This document shows positions 25,178-49,410 of a stretch of 64,000 nt of DNA, one piece after another (within the stretch, counting starts at the first letter, position 1; each line of letters opens with the position of its first letter). This stretch comes from Rhizaria sp. SCN 62-66. Its lineage: Eukaryota. The notes beneath the pieces were generated by a model. It was not told where the DNA came from, ran no database searches, and saw nothing but the letters and a program-made list of their open reading frames with translations. The position numbers and the translations under genes were made by a program. The DNA lies in NCBI GenBank assembly GCA_001724265.1, contig MEDY01000184.1, positions 1-64,000 of the forward strand. The letters run 5' to 3'.

Positions 25178-26874
25178 ACAATTGCCTTTTTCGAGATCAA
25201 CTAAAACGTTATCACATCAACGTAATACCCACAGCAATGAACATCAACAATGTCAAACAGCAGCAACAACGAATATTTTTGAGAGCAGTAACGCTGCTCT
25301 TGTACACGCGTTAGTATGCTTTGTTTTCTGTAGATTTCAGCTCTGTTTGGATTTGTCTCTAGTTTTCTCTTCAGCCTTGTTTTTCCCATCTAGCCCGAGC
25401 TGTACCTTTGTCGTTACATAGCCGCAACATGTGTTGTAAACCAACAACAACATCACTAGTAATCTCACGTCTAGTCCTGAAGCACGTTCTACTCTTCTTC
25501 GAATGTTCTTATACGAGACCTCAACAAAAAGAGATGAAAAATAAACACATTATTGTGACAAACATCATCTTTGTCTTGAATGGTCTTCGTCGCGTTATAT
25601 AGCACTCATACAAAGATAAGTATCGTGCTTCGTAACCAAACCTGTTTCCTGTTGTGTGTATTGCACTTTGCACGCAGCTGTGTGTGTTAATGTGTGTGCC
25701 TTGCTTGCATGGCGGTGGCATGTAGTCTGGACCGCCACCACTGCCGCCTCCGCCGCTGCCGCTACTGCCACGGCTACGTACGCTAAGCGTTTGAATTTGC
25801 TATATCTTAGTGGCGGGCGGATGGCGCCTGAACACGGTTGCTGCCATATCCAGCGCAGACCTCTCGTAGTCCTGCCAGCTACACCTCGCACGCGGGTCTG
25901 GCGCCGGCCGAAAGCACAATTGCGGTATCTCAGCGCTAATACCAGCTATTTTATGCACGCTGCGCGCAATACACACTTGAAGCGCCGGCTTATTAGTGGA
26001 GCACGAGTCATTTGTGAAAACAATATTCTTCTCTCCGTTCCGGTCAGCGCGGCTCTAGCCAAATCTGCCTCTAAGCTCGATAGTAATAACACTCAACTGT
26101 CTTTTCAATTTAAGAATCGTTGGAATTTTTGTTTGTTTGAATGAGTAGAGTAAAATTGAGTTCTGACAAAAGTTGTGTGCAATTCTTTAGTTTCTTGCTT
26201 CGACAACTTCAAGAGCTCAGACACAGATCTCGGTATTCACTAGAGATATTCTGCTCTACGTCTGAGATATCACAGCATTTATGAATATAAACCAAAACCT
26301 CACATTGCTTACGTTTATTTTCGAAAACCCGCTTCTAAATACTTGTTTTCTTGTGCACAAAGCTTTCATCAACAGGGAACAGCGACAGAATGAAACTTCA
26401 GTGCTTCCATTTGCAGCTCTCTTACACTTCTCTTGTCGAACGCTTGCTGAGGCAAGCTAAAGTCTACTTGCCACTAAGTTATATTCTTATTGGTTTTTGC
26501 TCAAACTTGAGCTGTGATGCTGGTGCACTCTGTGTGTATCGCGTGATCTCCGAACTCACTTCAAGTTGCACAGCCACGACTTTGGCGACCACGGACATTC
26601 TGACATCACACACCCATGAGATTTGTGACTTTTTACTGATGTATGACGTCTAGTCCAATAACGTGTTTTGCCCCGCCCCAAGATGTTATTTCATAAATGT
26701 TGTTGCCATTGATTTTGAAAACTACGAGTGTCAGTTTTAAATCTTGCTATCTACCATTTGCAACATGGTCGTATTTTTTTAACACCTTTAGATGCTAACT
26801 TTGGCTACGAGACGAAGCAGATTAGTCTTTGTCGTATTATTGACGAAGGCTCTGGTTTTGATGTATTTGTGCAT

Positions 26875-26954
26875 GTCAACATCCTCTAGTGGTATGTGGC
26901 GTGCCTTGAAAGCTCGTGCCTTCGGGCTCGTGGGTTCGAATCCCACTGTTGACG
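26875..26954 (+). tRNA. tRNA-Ser(UGA), atypical D and anticodon stems
   Basis: Perfect 7-bp acceptor GTCAACA/TGTTGAC, G discriminator, T-arm GTGGG-TTCGAAT-CCCAC, long variable arm GCC-TTCG-GGC, anticodon loop CT-TGA-AA (anticodon 26907-26909). Confidence 0.8.
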
Positions 26955-26976
26955 TTTCTTTTTTTCTTTTTTTTTT
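26955..26976 (+). terminator. Oligo-T RNA polymerase III terminator
   Basis: Long T runs begin immediately after the tRNA discriminator base. Confidence 0.75.
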
Positions 26977-35399: not shown

Positions 35400-38300
35400 A
35401 TGCACCGGTCGTCGTTTACTATGGCGTCGCTTGGTGGCACCGCAATCGGCCCCCGATGGTCCACAGCGACCCAAACCGCACGAAAACGTAAGCAGACTTT
35501 TCGCCATCCATCGTTTCACCCTCAGTTACTCTAGGTCTCATTCACCCGTACTCGGCTGCGCTCACCTCGCGATGTTTTCATATTTTTTATTCCTCTTTAG
35601 CGACCGTGTCGCCGTTTGCGGCGCCCATATCGGCACGCGACATGCTCCCCCGGCCCCCGCCGCAAGCGCGCAACGGCTCACTCTACGACGCCTACTGCGC
35701 TTCCAACGGCGCAGCGAGCGCCCGCGGCGGCCGGGCTGGCGGCGGGCCCCCATTCATACTGATTGACCTGCCACTCGACAGCAGCCCGGGCCAGCCCGGC
35801 GCGAGCAGCGACAGGAGCCGGAGCAAGCAGCGCCCGCCGCAGTCACAATTGCCGTCCTCGCGGCCCACAGCAGCGGACGTGTCCAAGTCAGCACAGCGAT
35901 CCGGCCGCCGCACTGGTGACGGCAACGGCGACGATGACGACGGTGGTGGTGACGGCAACGACTCTGGAGCTCCACGTCGCAAACGCTCGCGCTCTTAGTC
36001 GCGCTCTGAAGCCAAAGGCGGCAAGGGCGACGCATCTGCGAAGGCGACGCCGAAGACGCCAGAGACGCGCTCCCGCGCCCGCGCCCGCGCCCGCGCGAGA
36101 TCGCGCTTGCGCACCGGCCCCCGCGCCACCGGTCTTGCGTACGCTGAGTCACGCTCGCGCTCGCGCTCTCGGTCGCAGTCGCACGATCGGTCAAAGCAGC
36201 CTCAACAGCAGCAGCTGCAGCAGCAGCGGCTGCCGCGGCCGCACAGCGCGCCCGCGAGCGGTGCGCGGCTGGCGCACCAGGCGTACGTGCGCGTGCAGGC
36301 GCAGCAGCGGCACCGCGCCGTGCTGCGCCGCCTGCGCTCGGCCGCCCCGCGCGCCGCCGCAGACTCGGCCGCGGTCGGCGCGGGGAATGTCACCGCGCGG
36401 TCCGCCGTCGCGCCCGCCATGCGGCTCCACTTCCAGCACCAGCTGCTTGCCGCGCGCGCCGCGCGAGAGGCCGCCGTCGAGGTTGACAACGGCTGGATCC
36501 AGCGCAGGCTGCTCGCCATCGCGCGCAGGCCGTCCAACTACAGCTCAAATAATAACATCAACAACATCAGCTATGACAATGCTGCTGATGCTGCGCCTGC
36601 GTCGGCGCGCGAGTCGTGGCAGCGCGTGTGGGCCTCGGCGGCGGCCGCGGCGGCTGCGGCGGCATCGGCGCGCGCCTCGGCCCAGGCTGCCGCAGAGGCT
36701 GAGGCCGAGGTCCGGCGGGCTCGCGCCGCCGCGCCCCGGCCCAAGCCCAAGCCGCGGGCGGCGTCGGCCCCGCCGGGCGGCCGCGGGGGCAAGGGCAAGA
36801 AGGGCAAAAGGAGCAAAAAGGCGTGGAATTTTGCTGCGGGCGCGCCCCCGCCGTCTGCGCGCAAAGCCTCGGGCTCCAAGAACAACACAGCCTCGACAGA
36901 TGTAACCGGTGCTGAGGCTGATGGCGACGCTGACGGTGATGGCGATGACAAGCAAGACCAGGACCAAGAGAAGAAACGCTCTCGGTCGCGGTCGCAGTCA
37001 AAGGCCCTCCCGCGGCGGCCGCAGTCAGCTCCTCCAGGCTCGAAAAACCAGGACAGCAAGATCAAGTCCAGCGTCACGGAGAAGGACGATAAGTCGAGTG
37101 CTCGGGCCAGCGCCAGCGCCCGTGCGATAGCGGGCGGCAGTGCGAGCGTCCGCGGCCGCAGTCGCAGCGGCGGCGCGGGCGGTGGCGCTGCGCCGCTGCA
37201 ACGGCCGCCGTGGTCACTCAAGGGCGCGGTGCCGCTGACGCCCGCGACGGAGCGCCGCCGCCTGCGCTCAAAGTCGCGCTCTCAGTCGCGCTCACATTCG
37301 CGGCCACAGCCGCTGTCACGGCAGCAGTCCTGCGGCGGCGACCATGCCGCGCATGCGACCAGCGGCTCGGCAGTGACTATAAAGCGCGCGCCGTACCTCT
37401 GCCCCAACAGCGCGCGCCGTGCCGCGTTCGCCGAGTCGACGGCACGGCTGAACCTGGCGCTCGCGCAGCGCCTCGCCAAAGTCAAGGTGAGTCACAATAT
37501 AATCTTAATCTATTTGAGATATAGTCGTTCAACTCTGTTTCGGGTAAAATCTTTACGATCTCACATTCTATTCCTCTCTATTTTTTTTTATTTTTTTGCA
37601 CCACAGCCCTCATATTCTTTCTCTGCACGCTCGCCATCAGCCCACAGCCGCAACAACAACAACAACAACAGCGCATACGTCTCCAGCACGAACAACGCCG
37701 GTGTTAGCCACCCCGGTCGCGACGCGTCCTCCGCGGCCGCGCACCGCCGCGACCCCCACGCCAGCGGCGACGACGTGCCGGCGTCCGTGCGGCAGTACAG
37801 GCGCGCCAGCGTCACCGCGCTGGCCTCCGCGGCAGAGACGCACCGGCTGCGGCGCGCCACGCTCACGGGCACCAGCGCCACCGGCGGCGGCATGAGCGGT
37901 TCGAAGAGGAGCAGCTTGAGCACCGGCGTTGCGTTGACGGGCGATGCATTGTTCCCTAATTTCCCACAACCTCAGCAGCAGCAACAACAGCAAGAGCAGC
38001 AGCAGGGCCAGCAGCAGCAGCAACAGCAGCAGTCGCGGCGGCGCTCTCGATCGCGCACCCGGTCACGGCTCCAGCCGCAGCCTTAGTCCCGGTCCGCGTC
38101 GCCCGCGTCGCCGGCGCGCGCCCCCTCCCCGGCCGCCGTGGCCGCCGCGGCCGCCGCGCGCGCGCACGCCGCCGCCGCTCCCTACGCCGCCGCCGCCGCG
38201 CCCCGCGGCGCGCGCGCTCTGTTGCGGCAGGTTTCTGCCGCCCGTGCGCGCTGCAACGACGACACGCGCCGCAGCCGCAGCAGCAGCCGCAGTCAAAGCC

Positions 38301-38582
38301 ACAGTCCAAGTCGCGGCGGCCGCCCCGGCACGGCTTGTGGCGACACCGCTCTGAGCAAGGGCGACGACAAGCCCCCCGCCGGCAAGAGCAAGGGCCGGAG
38401 CCGGAGCAAGAACCGCGGCGCGAGTCGCAACGCAGGCGGAGGCAGAGCGGCTGTGGGCGGCGGGCGGGCGCGGTGCGCGGTCCTGGCCCCGGCGCCGCCG
38501 CCCGCGCCGCGGCCCAGCGCCAAGCCCGGGGTGCCCGTGCAGCGCGCGCACACGAGGCACGCCACACAGCGCTCGGCTCAAT

Positions 38583-38628
<46 letters not shown>

Positions 38629-39406
38629 GCAGGAGCAGAGCGGCGGTGCGCAGTATAACAAGTACATCGACGACGCAAGCCGCAGCCGCAGTTGCAGTCG
38701 CGCACGCGCGATTGCAGGTGCTGGGCCGGGTGCTGGAGCTGGGTTACGCCGAGGGCAGTCACGGGCGCGTGCGAATGCTCCAGGTCCCGTCGAGTCGCTG
38801 CTCGACTCTCTCACTCTCGCAGACGCGAGCAGCACGAAAAACAAGTCACGGCGGCCCCACGCTATGAGTCGCCTCGCATACCCCGCAACAGCTGCTGCTG
38901 CGAGTAGTAGCCGTCCTAACCCCGCACCTTCGCTTGTGTCCGGCTGGTCCCAAAGCTTTGATCACCGTTGTTCCGGCAACGATCAGGATGACCGTAACGG
39001 CGGCGGTGGCGGTGGCGGTGGCGGTGGCGGTGGCGGTGGCGGTGGCGGTGACGGCGACTCGTGGGGCGGCCCGCCGCTGCGCAGCGCGCGGCTCGGCGCG
39101 CTGCGGCCGACAGGAGCGGGGCAGGGCGGCCGGGTGGGCCGGCGGCCCAGCGCACGTGCTGACTCAATCAGCGCGACGCTGCCCGCCCCGCTCATCAGCA
39201 CCACTCCTGCTGGCAGCAATGTGGGCGGTGGTGCTGGGTGGGCTGACGAAGCCGGCGCGCTTGCGCGCGCGCTCAACGGCAACAACAACGCAGCCGGCGC
39301 GCAGCAGCGGCAACAACAACAACAGCAGCAGAGGCCTGCGTCGCGCGTGAGGTCGATGGCGACTGCGCGCAACGACCCGGGCACGTACAGTGTGTCCATG
39401 GGCTAA
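35400..39406 (+). CDS. CFAP97/KIAA1430-domain-like low-complexity protein with three in-frame TAG codons; exons ~35400-35487, 35601-37486, 37607-39406 (start uncertain)
   Basis: ORF-track pieces 35606, 36107, 38138 and 38864 share one frame and are separated only by TAG (35996, 38084, 38582). CFAP97-like motifs AREAAVEVDNGWIQRRLLAI and NSARR...RLNLALAQRLAKVK|PSYS; TAA stop. Confidence 0.72.
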
Positions 39407-39823
39407 TCGATGCTCATATACAATGTTTTAGGATCTATTTAGTTTAGTATTTGTCCTCAATTTTCCCAAGTTTATCATCGTTACATTAGCAGCCACGTAG
39501 TACGCACATGACAACAAGAGTGAGTAGTACGCGATCAATACATTATTCATAGCTTTTCCAATCAAAATAACAATCATAAATGTACCAAATCACACAAGTT
39601 CGTTAATATTTATTAATTGTTTGCATTGTTGTTATATTTGCTTTTGTAGTCCGTCATCGCCTTCACAGGAAGTTGGTGTTCATGCAAGGACATATGATAC
39701 TTCGCTCGCCACAAACTTCAAGTGCCTTGTTCATGTATGTATGTAAGCACCTCATTTTATGCGCCCTTCAAAGTACATTGCTCGAACATAAAAGCAATCG
39801 ATCGATCGCGCGCGCTTGCTTGC

Positions 39824-42658: not shown

Positions 42659-43454
42659 TTCGCAAACGTTTGTTTTTTCAAACCTTAAAACACGCGACCT
42701 ACGTCTCGTCTTTTACTTTTTTCTGCCACCGTTGGGCCCGTTCCGCGGCTTACTTAGCCTCGGCCACAGGGCCGAAAAAAGGAAACCCAGAGTGACCGTG
42801 AGCAGAGCTTCATTCCGCCCAAGTTTCAACGTCATAAACGCTCTATTATAAATTGACAGTGTTGCATCCTGCTATAAACATGTCTTTGAAACCTGGTTGT
42901 TTAGTTGTGTCTTCTTGTTGCACATTACCTGGCGCGATATCTTTGGAAATAAGGGCGCCCACAGTCAAGCTTGACCACAGCTGAAAGAGGTCAGACTGGC
43001 AGAAAAGTGGAGTCGAGAAACGATTAAAGGAATCGACAATTATGACCGCAAAGCTCTTTGCAATTGATGCACCCTATGTGCAATGAGTTATTTGACGTAG
43101 TATTTAAATTGTTGCGCTTGAAGCCGTCTTCTATTTTGTGTTTGACTCTGTCGGAGGAGCGCCACGTGTGAGGGTCTATCTCACCCCTTCCCTCATCGCG
43201 TGCCACTGCTGCGCCTTTTCCATCTTTGCACATTCGCTGACGACTTTCTTCACCCTATTTCCTCGCCTTTGTAACACTCCGCATTCTCTCTCACGTGTGG
43301 CTCGGCCGACGTATACGCGTTCACAGGACCAACACTCCAGTCCCAGAGCTGGTAAGACAAGCACCTTTCGTATCTCCAGCATTCCCCGCCCCCTCGCCCC
43401 TCCGCGCAGCCCCCGCTCCCCGCCCGCCCACCCTCCTCCGGCCCTGGCCGCCGC

Positions 43455-46031
43455 ATGTCCTACTCCGGTGCCGCGCCCCCCGCGATGTCGCTGACGATGC
43501 CGCTGCCGCCCAAAGGGCTCGCGGCGCAGAAGAAGGTCACGGTCACGCTCGACCCGCTCCTCGTCGCCGGCGCCACGCTCCCCGGCGCGCCCGGCGCTTC
43601 CGCCTCCGCCTCAGGCGCGGGCGGCTACGGCAGCTACGGCCACGGCGCCGGCCACGGCTGCGGCCCGTCGTCGTCGTCGTCGTCGTTGATGACTGGCGCG
43701 CCGCTGCCGGTGCCCGCGCCGCTGCCGCCGTCCGCGTACGCCGTGGCGGGCCCGCATCCGGACCTGCCGTTCATCCTCACGCTGGCCTCGCAGGAGATCG
43801 CCACGGCCGTTGACGCGTACCTCGAGACCACCGTCACGCCGCTTGTCCGCAGCGCCGTCAACATCGCCGCGGGCTTCACCATGGCCGCCCATCAGCTGCA
43901 ATAGCAGACCTCCTCATCCTCCTCTTCCTCGGCCGTTGCCGCCGCCGCCGCCGCGGCCGCGCGGCCCGTGGACCCGGCGTTGGTGGCGCAGGTGCACGGC
44001 GCCGTGCGCTCGATGGTGGCCGCGTGCCGTGCCTCTGTCGTGCCGTGGTTGCGCGAGCAGCTCGCCGAGCAGGCCGCCGCCATCGCGCGTGCCTCGCTCG
44101 ACGCGCGGCCGCTCGACGCGCGCGCGCTCGCCGCCGTCGAGAGCAACCCGTTCATGGCCTACAGCACGCCCCACCAGTACGCATACGCCGCCTCCTCGTC
44201 ATCCGGCCATGGCAGTCAGTTCGCAGGCCCTATGGCGGTGGCAGGAGGCTCGGGCGCGTCGCCGACGCTGGCGGGCGCGCGCCACATGCGCAAGCGCTCC
44301 AGCGACATGCGCGACGCGCGCGTTGGCAGCGCCAACGCCAACTTGGCCTCCAGCTCCCACTACAACGGCGGCGGCGGCGGCAACAACCTGGCGATGCAGC
44401 GCAGCAGCACGGCCTCCCCCGGCCCCGGCGCGGGCCCCAACAGTAGCAACAGCGGCGGCGGCGGCAGCGACGCGTACCGCACACTGGAGCGGCTGTGCCG
44501 CGCGGGCGACACGCAGGCGCTGGCGGACGCGATCAACGAGGCGCTGGTGTCGGCGCCCGACGCGGCGGCGGCGTGGCTGGGCCCCCAGGGCCGCGCGCGC
44601 TCCTCGCTGCTGCACGTCGCGGCGTCGCTGCGGCGGCCCGACATGTGCGCCGTGCTGGTGAATCTGGGCGCGAACCCGAACCTGGTTAACGCGCGCGGCG
44701 TCACGCCCGTGCTGGTCGCGCTCGACGCCGGCGACGCGGGCTCCGCGCGGGCCATGGCCGAGCGCGGCGGGCGGCTGCCGCGCCAGGAGCTGGCGGCCGT
44801 CGAGGCGCGGCTGGGTCGCGCGCTGGACTCCGAGCTGACCGCCGATCTGCTGGCGCCGCCCGTGGACAACGCCGCGTGGGACGCCGAGAACGCGGCCAAC
44901 CCGCCGCTGTCCTTCTCTCGCCCGCCCACCTCGATGACCGGGGCCGCGGCCGGGGCCGGGGGCGTTGCGGGCAGCGCGTCCCCGCAGCTCGGCGCCAGCG
45001 CCAACAACACCGCTGGCACCAACAGTGCGGCCGCGGCTGCGGCTGCGGCGGCGGGCGGCGTGTCTGCCGAGTACGCGCGGTCCGTGCTGATGACCGTACC
45101 GCCGACCAAACCCGCGGACGCGACGGAGAAGCAGGTGGGCAAGATGCTCGACAAGCTCGTGCGCTTCGGCGACCAGGCCACGCTCAAGACCTTCCTGGAC
45201 TCGCTCAGCACGGGCGAGAGGCTGCTGCACACGGGCCCCACGGGCCACTCCAAGTCGACGCTGCTCTTCACGGCGGCGTGGAACAAGCGCAGTGACTTGT
45301 TCGATTTACTTATCGCGGGCGTGGGCGTGGACGTGAACCACCGGAACCTGCGGCGCAACACGGCGCTGCTCATGTCGGTGGAGCAGGGCGACATGGACGC
45401 TGTGGCGCTGCTGCTGCAGTACGGCGCCTACGCCACCGAGCGCGACCTTAAGGAGCTGGAGGCGCGGACCGGCCACGGCTGTGATCCCGCGATCGTGGCG
45501 CTGCTGATGGACAACTACAAGTCGCGCAAGGCCATGGGCGAGTTCGACAAGGTCAAGGACGAGAAGGCTACGGTGACGGCGTCCAACGTCAAGAAGGCGC
45601 TGGCGGCGCTGTCGCCCGAGAAGAGCGCGTTCCGGCAGGACATCCACAAGGAGCTGGAGCGGCACGTCAAGTTCGGCGACCCCGCCAAGGTGCGCGGCAT
45701 GCTCGAGGCGCTTCCGCAGGCCTCGCGCGACGCTCATCTGGGCCCCGTGGGGATGTCCAAGTCGACGCTGCTCTTCACGGCGGCCTGGCACCGACGCGCC
45801 GACATGTGTCGCGTGCTGGTCGAGTGCGGCGCCGACGTGACGCACCGCAACGTGCGGCAAAACAGCGCCGTGTCGATGGCCATCGAGCAGCACTCGCTCG
45901 AGACCGTCGAGGCATTGCTTGAGACCGGCGCCGACAGCTCGGCGCAGGAGGTGCGGGAGATTGAGAAGCGGACGAACAAGCCCGTGCCAGAGCAGATCAC
46001 CGACGCGATCTTCGACTGGTGCGGCAAGTAA
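43455..46031 (+). CDS. Ankyrin-repeat protein with three tandem modules and one in-frame TAG (43902-43904)
   Basis: ORFs 43455-43904 and 43968-46031 are in one frame, joined by CAA TAG CAG and 21 sense codons with no AT-rich intron; ankyrin motifs SLLHVAA/TLLFTAA...GADV..RN; TAA stop. Confidence 0.82.
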
Positions 46032-46575
46032 GGCGAGACTGACGCTGACGCTGATGCTTTTTGCGACTGAAATCGTCTTCTTGCAGTGGCCCAAGTCTAC
46101 AAGTCTTTCCTTGTGTCTGTCTTTTGTTTTTGTTGTGATTGTCGTTGCAATTGTGATTTCTCACCAGTGCTTTCGCTGTCCTTTTCTCATCCTTGTTTAT
46201 CGAGTTTGTTTTCCACGACGGAGTTGTGTCACGCTGCTGTTCCGTTGCGTTGTTTCTCTACAGCGCATCGACTGCAGTAACTCCCCCAACCCCACATTCC
46301 TTTTGTAAATGATAACTTTTTTTTTTCACACTGGTCATACTTTGACCACATATCAAGAGGTAGAGACGTTGCTGTTTACCATTGTTACAGTTTACAGTGG
46401 CGCTCTCTGCGTATCCACCCTTGCTCTGTCTTGTGGTCTTACTTGTTTGTTTACCGTAATCAATACAAACTCCGTCAATTGCACTCTGAGCGCCGATTTT
46501 GATTAATTCAACTTAATTTGTGCTCCTCTTCAATTTTGTTTTCACTATAGAAGTGGTCTTCGACCTCTATTCCCC

Positions 46576-48081
46576 ATGTCCCTGGTACGTACTTACTCTC
46601 ATCTTTCTATCCACTTACCTTCAGCTCTTGTTGCTTCATACTCACACCTATACACTCTTTTTTTGTTTGTGAGCAGAACTACTCTAAATGGGACGTTATT
46701 GAGGCTGCCGAGCGCGAGGATGAGGAGCGCGAAAAGGCCATTTTACGCGAAAAGACCCGTCTTAAGTACGTCTCACTCTCCAGCTCTCTCTTAAGAGCTT
46801 CTCCTTCTATTTAGACGCGCCTCTCTATAATCCTCACTATGAACCTGCTACGCTACTTTATCCATGCTCCTTCACTTGTATTGTTTGCTATCGCCATCTT
46901 TTCGGCCCGCCGCAGGTACATGTCTGAGCAGGCGGAGCGGCAGCGGCAGTGGCAGGAGCGCAACCCTGGCGCGGCGCCGCCAGCGCAGCACTCCGTGTGC
47001 GGCTGCAGCCCCGCCGCGTTCCAGCTCGCCGTAGAGGCGCAGTAGCAGGCCGCGAGCGCCGACACAGGCAGCGGTCACGGCCACGGTCACGGCCACGGTC
47101 ACGGCCACGGTCATGCCCACGGTCATGCCCACAACAGCCATGATCACGATCACGATCATGGTCACGGTCACGGTCACGGTCACGGTCATTCCCATGGCCC
47201 TGCGACCGCGCCCGCGCCTGCGCCTGCGCATCTTGCTGCGACTAAGGCCGAAGCTGCCACAGCCTCAACTGCTTCCAAGGCTCCTGTCCCTGCTCCTGCT
47301 GCTGCAGCTGCAACTGCTGCCTCAGCTGCTCCAGCTTCATCGCCCGCAGCGCGCAACGCCCCTGCAGCGAGCAACGGCACCAGCGCAGCGGCCGCCGCTT
47401 CGAACCCCCTGGGCTGCGGGTTTGCGGGCGTCGAGCAGCTGCAGGCGTTCATCGACGCCGCGAAAGCTGCGGCTGCGAACAACAACAGCAGCAAAACCAA
47501 GAGTAACAACAAGAATGCAGTTAGCAGCAGCAGCAGCACGGCTGTAGCAGCAACTGCGACAAATGCGGCTACCACTACTGCTCCCGCCGCCGCGCCTGCA
47601 GCTGCGCCTGCGGCCAACAGCAACAGCAGCGGCAGCGGCAGCGGCAGCGGCAGCGGCAGCAGTAGCAGTAGCAGCGCGGCACAGCCTGCGTTTTCGTCGC
47701 TGCCGCTGAGCGAGAAGAACCTCCGCAAGCGTGTGGGACTAGCGGCCGCGCTCGCCGACGCGCGGGACCACCTGGCCGCCGCCGCGCTGCACCCGCAGCT
47801 GCAGCTGCGCGCTGAGACAGCAGCAACAACAGCAGGCACAACCGCGACCGCGACTTCTGCGACAGCAGTTGCTGAGAGCGAGACAGTGAGGCCTCTGTGG
47901 CTGCCGCGGCCTCTCTGGGCCGCCCTTGCCCCTTCGCTCTCATCATCCTCAACATCATCAACTGCAACAACAACTGCAACAGCTGCAACAGAAACAGACT
48001 CGGCGGCAAAGCTAACGCCAGCGCCCGCGTCGCCGTCAGCGCCCGCGCCCGTCAAGCCCGTCAAGCCCTCCGTCTCTGCCT

Positions 48082-48125
<44 letters not shown>

Positions 48126-48848
48126 TCAGTGCTGGCCCTGGCGCGCTCGCCGCACCCGCCCGCGGCGTTGCGGCGCGCGGCGGGCAGCATCCTCTCGCGT
48201 GCCCAGCTCTTCGTCAACGACATCACGGGCGCGGGCGACGGCGAGGAGGGCTGGGCGCTGCAGCGGGCTGAGGCGCGGGCGTTCGCGCTCACGGCCGTTG
48301 CCGAGGCCGCGGCAGGGCAGGCGCAGGCCGCCGAGCGCGCCGCCGCCACCGCGCTGGCCATCGACGTCGACTCGGCGCGCGCGCTGGCACTTTGGGCGGA
48401 CCAGGGACGTCTGCCAGGAAGTGACTGTGAGCAGCAGCAGAGTGACCGTGAGCCGCAGCGGCAGACACAGCAGGGACCTGAGAGTGGTGATTCGTCGCCG
48501 CTCGTGCTGCTGTTCAGCCGGTCTGCGGCGCGGGGCGAGCCCCTCTGCGCGCGCGCCTTCGCCCGCCACCTCAAAGCCGCCGCCGCAGCCTCCGCAGCAG
48601 TTCCACAGAGCGGTCCGGAGGGCCCTACCACCAGCGAAAGCGACGGCGAGTCCGAGACCGAGGAGGGCGCGGCAGTGGGCGGTATGGGCCGCCCCTCGGC
48701 CCACTGGGTGCCCGTGGCGGCCGCCGACGTGCTGGGCTCCGCGGCGACGGCGCTGCTGGCGCGGGCCGAGGCGCTGCGGTCGCGCGGGTAGCCCGCCAAG
48801 GCGAGGGCCGCGCTGGCAGAGGTGCTTGCGCTGGCCCAGGCCGGCGTT

Positions 48849-48885
<37 letters not shown>

Positions 48886-49410
48886 GCAGTAATAATACTG
48901 GTGATGCAAGCAGTACGAGTGCGTTGGCGGAGACGGGGGAGCTGGTGCGACTGTGGGTCTGGGTGGACGGTGCAGAGGCTGCGCTGCTGCGCAAAGAGAG
49001 TACGTCCATCGAACAATCTATATCTTGGTGATTTACGTTATGATCTGTATCGTGCAATGTGGAGGGATGTGAAATTTCTCATCAAATGTGATGATGAATG
49101 ACACTATTAGTTGACATGAGGATTGACTAGGGATTTCGATTGTTTGATGGAATTATCCACATATTTCTCACTTTGTATTGCCTTTTTGTATCATTGCGCA
49201 TTCTCCCTTTCACTCACACCAACTGCTCAATTCACCGCTCACTGCTCACCGCTCACTGCACACACCGCACTGACAGTGGCCGCTAGCGCGCGCGCCCAGT
49301 CCCGGCGGCTCGAGAGGGAGGCCAGTACCGCCGCCAAGCGCGAGGGCGCCATGGCCCGCCGTATGGCCGCCGCGCTCAGGGCCGCCGCCGCAGCGGACGA
49401 CAAGAGCTGA
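46576..49410 (+). CDS. YSKWD-motif, His-rich, TPR-like protein with two in-frame TAG codons; exons 46576-46584, 46677-46765, 46916-48999, 49277-49410
   Basis: Three GTACGT introns with consistent phases (0, 2, 1) give MSLNYSKWDVIE...; exon 3 is open except TAG at 47043 and 48789; TPR-like LLARAEALRSRG*PAKARAALAEVLALA; TGA stop. Confidence 0.75.

Follow-up and report, generated by a model that had tools for sequence, protein, structure and literature searches.

Reassignment of UAG alone, UAA being left as a stop codon, is known from several nuclear genomes. As the papers cited here and below describe these cases, UAG alone means leucine (Leu) in the rhizarian exLh and glutamine (Gln) in Iotanema spirale (Panek et al. 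2017, PMC5304391), Leu in the TARA phyllopharyngeans, Gln in Hartmannula, Trochilia and Protocruzia tuzeti, and serine (Ser) in Scotinosphaera (McGowan et al. 2024, PMC11687900). Glutamate (Glu) is the meaning of both UAA and UAG (UAR) in peritrich ciliates (PMC11687900) and in Blastocrithidia (PMC12153298), and in Oligohymenophorea sp. PL0344 UAG is Glu, UAA is lysine (Lys) and UGA is the sole stop codon (PMC10553269). In all of the published cases of UAG as Glu that were found, UAA is reassigned too (PMC11687900, PMC12153298, PMC10553269). The stretch considered here, called the window, consists of positions 1 to 64,000 of contig MEDY01000184.1 in the assembly GCA_001724265.1 of Rhizaria sp. 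SCN 62-66, and has at 35400-39406 a low-complexity gene whose reading frame is crossed by three TAG codons. Together with other loci fetched from the same 34.9-Mb, 714-contig assembly (the window is its contig C184), it points to a code in which UAG is read mainly as Glu and UAA and UGA are stops, a reading to which we give a probability of about 0.7. No report of UAG as Glu with UAA kept as a stop was found in the literature, where an existing one may have been missed.

The genome resembles those of Iotanema and exLh in having UAG as a sense codon beside UAA and UGA stops and in needing a tRNA with a CUA anticodon, and Iotanema eRF1 is also altered at Thr32. The CUA tRNA is only predicted in those two, whereas here a gene for it was found and is of Glu type. 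TAG is far rarer here than in exLh, where 384 occur in 71 genes (PMC5304391), and Leu has the second-worst score at the TAG sites of the present genome. With the phyllopharyngeans, Protocruzia and Scotinosphaera it shares reassignment of UAG only, UAA staying a stop, but in none of those is the new meaning Glu. PL0344 also reads UAG with Glu-derived suppressor tRNAs(CUA), encoded by 10 genes that are 69-93% identical to tRNA-Glu (PMC10553269), but its UAA is reassigned, and the present genome has one such gene, of 64% identity. Peritrichs and Blastocrithidia would have UAG as Glu in common with it, but UAA is also Glu there, and of 85 TAA scored here none is read on. Unlike the AT-rich genomes of the ciliate kind, this one has ~63% GC and long AT-rich introns.

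In this genome UAG very probably codes for an amino acid. A single eRF1 gene was found, and its N domain contains a TAG in frame that aligns with human E107 (G000:C63:103463-103465, which is L039:1594-1596, minus strand); the database copy of the protein begins at the first Met past it; the other two PF03463 matches are one gene, which reads as Pelota-like. SUV3 has an in-frame TAG inside Helicase_C, at which its database entry is split into two 100% pieces. Among 142 Pkinase matches nine have TAG as their only stop, five of these being exonic and four splice acceptors, and a further exonic TAG kinase from 152 PK_Tyr matches makes six exonic cases in total. One of the six, the C148 kinase (L054, G000:C148:55500-62492), a Kinase-Sel1 member, was dropped from the final counts for its frameshifts; it also has a TGA in frame and contains three TAGs, one of which stands where four of five paralogues have TGG. 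It is a pseudogene, and the lineage-specific family to which it belongs has expanded, with paralogues on C42, C49, C9, C133, C134 and C424; at its site 3131 GAA is present in the closest paralogue, but this was not counted in favour of Glu. Four of the five TAG kinases that remain were checked, and each keeps one frame across its kinase domain or exon. One kinase has its TAG in the hinge (L153, G000:C18:46000-50500), and there the domain is spread over ~750 codons by Ser/Ala-rich insertions with its motifs kept.

A Markov coding model trained on the fetched loci finds coding sequence on both sides of 15 TAG, no TAA and one TGA. The genome favours G-ending codons, yet TAG is rarer than any other codon tallied, at 19 in 136,575 coding-called codons (~1.4 per 10,000), against 565 CAA, 626 GAA and 34 ATA. 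Extrapolated to the whole assembly, this rate would give about a thousand TAGs in exons. A codon so scarce is readily overlooked by routine annotation, and the SUV3 and eRF1 entries split at TAG are cases of it. Several candidates and sources of candidates were set aside. No exonic TAG was seen in the nine dynein heavy chain loci with listed open reading frames (ORFs; 10 loci were fetched), the TAGs shown there all lying at ORF edges in intron-like sequence; no stop occurs in any of 20 ABC_tran matches; two of the three TAG-bearing matches among 88 to Helicase_C are intronic or at an acceptor; edge TAGs at C208 and C505 failed the exon test; and of five Pkinase matches with TAA or TGA, the three checked (all but those on C520 and C178) are intronic. 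Contigs from other runs carry the same TAGs. The one at 43902 reads identically in a DNA contig from a different study (X3), 15 letters from the contig end, and in the X4 contig that spans 47043 the three listed differences fall elsewhere. Four runs were compared at 80% likeness, and among the differences listed, mostly repeat noise and with 396 more outside the list, there are no strain variants at TAG sites.

UAA and UGA are kept as terminators. In a sample of less than 3% of the assembly, stops that look terminal (coding sequence before, non-coding after, no donor motif) number 62, of which 35 are TAA, 25 TGA and two TAG, and both of the latter are plausibly read on, one continuing for 219 codons and the other for 16 GC-rich codons to a TGA. 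This second one, in an LRR-like gene at L056:7399 (-), has an AT-rich tail after the TGA and is the sole candidate for a terminal TAG, such as a context-dependent code of the Condylostoma type would have near the 3′ ends of transcripts. None of 85 coding-preceded TAA is followed by in-frame coding sequence. For TGA the figure is two of 53, at L097:4330 (+) and L127:459 (+), where the sequence beyond scores weakly as coding and is probably GC-rich 3′ flank. UAA read as Glu, as in the UAR type of code, was not seen.

On the amino acid's identity the stronger line, independent of protein sites, is a tRNA. Anticodon loops with CUA were sought by pattern, in a way that would miss CUA tRNAs with an intron or a long arm, and six matches came up, one of them a tRNA (G000:C84, which is L087:1489-1561, minus strand). 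Its gene sits between ordinary genes, is followed by a T run and pairs at all 17 of the stem positions checked. A structure-anchored comparison with 27 of the genome's own tRNA species (His, Phe, Pro, Leu(CAA) and Ser(CGA) are absent from the set) gave core identities of 39/57 to Glu(CUC), 33/57 to Glu(UUC), 25/57 to Gln(CUG) and 22/57 to Gln(UUG), the first of which equals the match between the two own Glu tRNAs. The acceptor agrees with Glu(CUC) at 11 of 14 positions and with Glu(UUC) at 10, but with either Gln tRNA at two. Among 340 pairs of different isotype the core mean is 27.8 ± 4.6, with five pairs reaching 39 and five reaching 10/14 in the acceptor. The body of the CUA tRNA appears, on this comparison, to be of Glu and not of Gln type, and it would be charged with Glu. 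It keeps U11-A24, U13:G22 and a 4-base variable loop, which are Glu identity elements in Escherichia coli (PMC9976931), but these do not discriminate, because the genome's own tRNA-Gln(CUG) has them as well. Where both own Glu tRNAs have C38, the CUA tRNA has C32-A38. In human cells the C32-A38 change gives more than 20-fold more UAG suppression by tRNA-Glu(CUA), and an optimised variant installed ~95% Glu (PMC12204705). The engineered human tRNA-GluV13(CUA) of that work shares with the natural tRNA its Glu body, its CUA anticodon and C32-A38; unlike it, it is a laboratory construct in a standard-code cell, whereas the anticodon stem of the natural tRNA is wholly remodelled and AU-rich.

Metagenomes gave nine matches to the CUA tRNA, eight of which look bacterial or phage-like, three of those eight being Arg(UCU). 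Bacterial or phage-like contigs with CUA tRNAs, some of them in tRNA arrays, are L144 (which has two), L146, L147, L148 and L149. An 11.8-kb metagenome contig of 39% GC (L150), from another eukaryote that is probably a ciliate, carries both TAG and TAA in frame in DCAF13/Sof1, together with a CUA tRNA whose acceptor is Glu-like and whose anticodon arm is Gln-like; where its TAGs align to both human and yeast, at four sites, Glu stands in both at one of them and the others vary.

The second component is the release factor. The eRF1 of this genome has T32S (T in 118 of 119 homologues, with one gap), G57S (G in 119/119) and T58K (T in 118/119), as well as L126M and K130Q, while it keeps E55, S70, NIKS and YxCxxxF. 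Thr32 closes the pocket at the stop codon's third base, and Thr58-Lys63 line the codon (PMC4605324). In Iotanema the change is T32G (PMC5304391), and in yeast T32A is lethal and motif mutations increase UAG suppression (PMC4381064, PMC12440015). No published study of T58K was found in the literature. The relative behind database protein P0002 also has T58K, with T32 and G57 unchanged. T32S, G57S and T58K, lying around the stop-codon pocket, presumably weaken recognition of UAG. On the scheme proposed here, a copy of tRNA-Glu(CUC) would have acquired the anticodon CUA and A38, so pairing with UAG and not with UAA, and eRF1 would have lost grip on UAG through its three changes. Terminal TAGs would have been purged from gene ends, as the sampled stops suggest, and new TAGs would arise by point mutation from GAG, which is synonymous, and from CAG, the Gln to Glu change being tolerated in polyQ and at variable sites. 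TAG would stay scarce since one tRNA gene may decode UAG poorly, and the gene at 35400-39406 would give a single protein of 1257 amino acids with Glu at codons 162, 818 and 984.

Evidence from protein sites is modest. Six conserved sites are used, those in eRF1, SUV3, the kinase hinge and three further loci (kinase L047, L048 and L055); the TAG of L053, placed within an insertion, carries no information. At the eRF1 TAG the column has E106 D12 V1 of 119. The hinge column has E37 D2 of 39 homologues and E26 D3 P1 H1 Q0 of 31 other kinases of this genome, with GAG in the closest paralogues, and the SUV3 column has D86 T13 A6 S4 E4 Q0 of 118. Over the six sites the Pfam bits add up to E 379.8, Q 375.8, K 375.1, S 372.4, Y 367.8, L 364.8 and W 363.2, the hinge supplying 2.4 of the 4.0 bits by which E leads Q. 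Profiles made for this analysis score E at 8.4 bits and Q at 5.9 over seven sites, among them the C148 pseudogene, which entered that sum and one of the Pfam scorings and is near neutral there. On trees, with a test like that of Panek et al. (17-30 homologues at each site, none of them NEK at L048), the posterior of E is 0.81-0.995 for the six sites.

A number of observations pull the other way. There are just six informative conserved sites, and when the hinge is left out the tree-based values are 0.18-0.76 for E and 0.01-0.50 for Q, with Ala leading in one setting. The L047 column has Q26 K24 A10 D7 R7 E6 of 100 with Q in the three nearest homologues, L048 corresponds to Gln in NEK1 and MST1, the L055 column is variable, and the closest relative of the eRF1 has Val at the TAG site. 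In their immediate context TAGs look like Gln codons: QxQ surrounds two of 19 (9% for CAG, 0.5% for GAG), the mean number of Gln neighbours is 1.26 against 1.52 for CAG and 0.43 for GAG, and none of the 19 adjoins Glu or Asp. The tRNA itself is just 64% identical to Glu(CUC), below the range of the PL0344 Glu suppressors, was seen once in the genome, and had no orthologue in metagenomes, where none of the nine matches is from a close relative. On our reading the context of a TAG records its codon of origin: the step from CAG is a transition, repeats and variable columns tolerate Glu in place of Gln, and mixed contexts are what a Glu code would then predict. Under a Gln code, conversely, most TAGs would be expected where Gln is conserved and few where Glu is invariant. 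The three constrained sites do the opposite: three of the six are Glu/Asp columns without Gln, two are variable columns that lean to Gln, and none is Gln-invariant.

The best placed of the other explanations, though an improbable one, is that UAG means Gln as in Iotanema, the decoder being a Gln tRNA(CUA) that was not seen, the Glu-like tRNA charged by GlnRS, or tRNA-Gln(CUG) through first-position wobble. A meaning that UAG on its own has taken several times in evolution (PMC11687900), it would fit the residues at L047 and L048, the Gln-like neighbourhood of TAGs in general, and the flanking Gln at 38582, 43902, 47043 and the TAG of L171. It would demand changes from an acid to Gln in three columns that show no Gln at all, and it gains nothing from the lack of any TAG in a Gln-invariant column; a DNA search with tRNA-Gln(CUG) gave five copies, all with CUG, and the sole CUA tRNA found is the Glu-like one. 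The assignment to Gln in the preliminary description of the window is not supported by these comparisons, and Glu appears more likely.

Next to it, and likewise improbable, comes a reassignment that is ambiguous or unfinished, with UAG read as Glu and to some extent as Gln, or ending translation in part through residual recognition by eRF1, or both. The rarity of TAG in spite of favoured G-ending codons, the dynein loci free of it, the single tRNA gene, the split of conserved sites between Glu-like and Gln-like, and the E55, S70, NIKS and YxCxxxF that eRF1 keeps are all in line with this, but rarity is also expected of a young codon that arises by mutation alone, 62 terminal-like stops hold no clear terminal TAG, and the eRF1 and SUV3 genes with TAG need full-length products. 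A version that we hold doubtful has the single Glu-tRNA(CUA) competing with a half-recognising eRF1, so that the UAG in the eRF1 N domain would act as negative feedback on the level of eRF1; against it, the nearest relative of the eRF1 lacks a stop there. Bacterial RF2, with its internal stop, is a parallel for such feedback. The standard code, with the TAGs as nonsense in pseudogenes or as assembly errors and the tRNA as a pseudogene, is largely refuted and very improbable, for although the C148 kinase is indeed a pseudogene, the protein of the gene at 35400-39406 has no homologue and the three TAGs of that gene could be chance, TAG interrupts SUV3 and the only eRF1 found, has no clear instance among the gene ends sampled, outnumbers TAA and TGA 15 to 0 and 1 where coding sequence flanks a stop, recurs in contigs of other runs and in database entries, and is matched by a tRNA with well-paired stems.

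The gene from which the question arose by itself proves little about the code (Table 1). Its three TAGs and their contexts are as the preliminary description gave them, and its fragments do form one gene: the TAGs share one plus-strand frame that closes at a TAA at 39404, and with two predicted introns taken out the spliced coding sequence has 1257 codons. The remaining two plus-strand frames have 20 and 31 stops between 35400 and 39420. The ATG at 35400 is out of the long frame and is joined to it only through the first predicted intron, which itself holds an in-frame TAA at 35489. GC content is 0.61-0.92 on either side of every TAG and the flanks score as coding, so the three TAGs are not hidden in introns, and mini-introns that would excise them are ruled out on the same two measures. 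The readthrough claimed for them is upheld, by genome-wide evidence rather than by this gene. The argument that three nonsense changes all to TAG would be unlikely in a decaying gene is weak, because the codon content of the gene makes a random nonsense change a TAG 64-67% of the time, which gives three out of three a probability of 0.26-0.31. Nor do the repeats identify Gln, as had been proposed: apart from the TAG site, x in [RK]SRSxS of this protein is R four times, Q three times, S once and C once, Glu makes two of the five single interruptions of its Gln runs, and SRSxS in the wider genome sample has P 5, R 4, G 2, Q 2 and three others. Repeat context tells the source codon of a TAG, often CAG, and not its present meaning. 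An alignment of orthologues, suggested at the same time, has nothing to work on, since the least repetitive part of the protein matched only itself among 1.84 billion representatives; a Pfam match was not found either.

Outside the assembly, a polyA-library contig (X5, 35797-36061) spans the TAG at 35996 with one letter different, the place of the difference not being given. Among the RNA and other-run contigs listed no piece spans the TAGs at 38084 or 38582, and neither intron is among the splice joints listed for RNA contigs. Contigs of run X6 cover 38303-38495 and 39181-39421, in exon 3. An identical database protein, P0344, ends at the TAG at 38084 and is on six Logan/ENA contigs, which are perhaps not independent samples. 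A segment of the protein resembles CFAP97/Hemingway ciliary proteins in the ESM Atlas, a likeness that is a lead only; Pfam Hmw_CFAP97 (PF13879) has no match in the protein at E<=1.

Table 1. Features of the gene with three TAGs and of other loci in the window (window positions)
Feature	Position	Strand	Remarks
Exon 1, predicted	35400..35487	+	ATG at 35400 as predicted start; low-complexity gene of 1257 codons
Intron 1, predicted, GT...AG	35488..35600	+	113 nt, 46% GC; moves frame into long ORF
Exon 2, predicted	35601..37486	+	
TAG in frame	35996..35998	+	codon 162, KRSRS-x-SRS; both flanks coding-scoring
Hemingway/CFAP97-like ciliary segment (lead only)	36239..36568	+	ESM Atlas cosine 0.88, below the tool's 0.9 line
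Intron 2, predicted, GT...AG	37487..37606	+	120 nt, 31% GC, in frame, stop-free; in-frame coding score -62
Exon 3, predicted	37607..39406	+	closes at TAA 39404-39406, then AT-rich sequence
TAG in frame	38084..38086	+	codon 818, QPQP-x-SRS
TAG in frame	38582..38584	+	codon 984; second codon of CAA-TAG-(CAR)16-GAG
TAG in frame, neighbour gene (frame 43356-46031), upstream of ankyrin repeats	43902..43904	+	X3 DNA contig, 0 differences
TAG in frame, gene on frame 46503-49031	47043..47045	+	spanned by X3 (0 differences) and X4
TAG in frame, weak TPR-like stretch, frame 46503-49031	48789..48791	+	spanned by polyA-library contig X5 48447-48839
tRNA-Ser(UGA) gene	26874..26955	+	

The window is eukaryotic, with GT-AG introns and genes for XRN, CNOT1, importin-like and GINS proteins. 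Between 2254 and 63539 the neighbours of the gene are an XRN exonuclease, an NDUFAF7-like methyltransferase, a B9-C2 ciliary protein, CNOT1 (whose frame in the window has 2953 codons and no TAG), an importin-alpha-like protein, an aldo-keto reductase, ankyrin and TPR proteins, phosphoglucomutase, a rhomboid, PSF1 and a beta-eliminating lyase. One X6 contig skips 42086-42240, which fits a spliced intron in a minus-strand gene, and run X6 therefore holds cDNA of the source organism. With ~11 dynein heavy chain loci and the B9-C2 gene in its genome the organism is probably flagellated. The runs containing the greater part of the stretch bear the label of a bioreactor or wastewater metagenome, runs with a small share of it not being used as evidence of habitat. 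One kinase has its top named match in Plasmodiophora brassicae (58%), within a family of 51 rows with support 97/95, and a quick tree of SUV3 groups it weakly with Plasmodiophora (support 87); a PDB search with phosphoglucomutase returned nothing. These single-gene trees hint at a rhizarian affinity, and the source is probably a GC-rich, flagellated protist of Rhizaria.

From the perspective of code evolution, polyQ context would be a poor guide to the meaning of a reassigned codon. If the residue were Gln, a known code would have arisen independently once more, in a lineage new to it and with an unusual tRNA. If it is Glu, this would be a variant of the nuclear code, UAG as Glu with UAA and UGA as stops, that was not found in print. 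A fourth amino acid would then be able to capture UAG alone, here in a GC-rich genome that is not that of a ciliate. Both halves of the mechanism, suppressor tRNA and eRF1 allele, are in hand. The eRF1 allele with T32S, G57S and T58K may ignore UAG only, and so may be of use for amber suppression in eukaryotes, and the suppressor tRNA, if it does insert Glu, would have converged on the same C32-A38 change that was engineered into a therapeutic tRNA-Glu.

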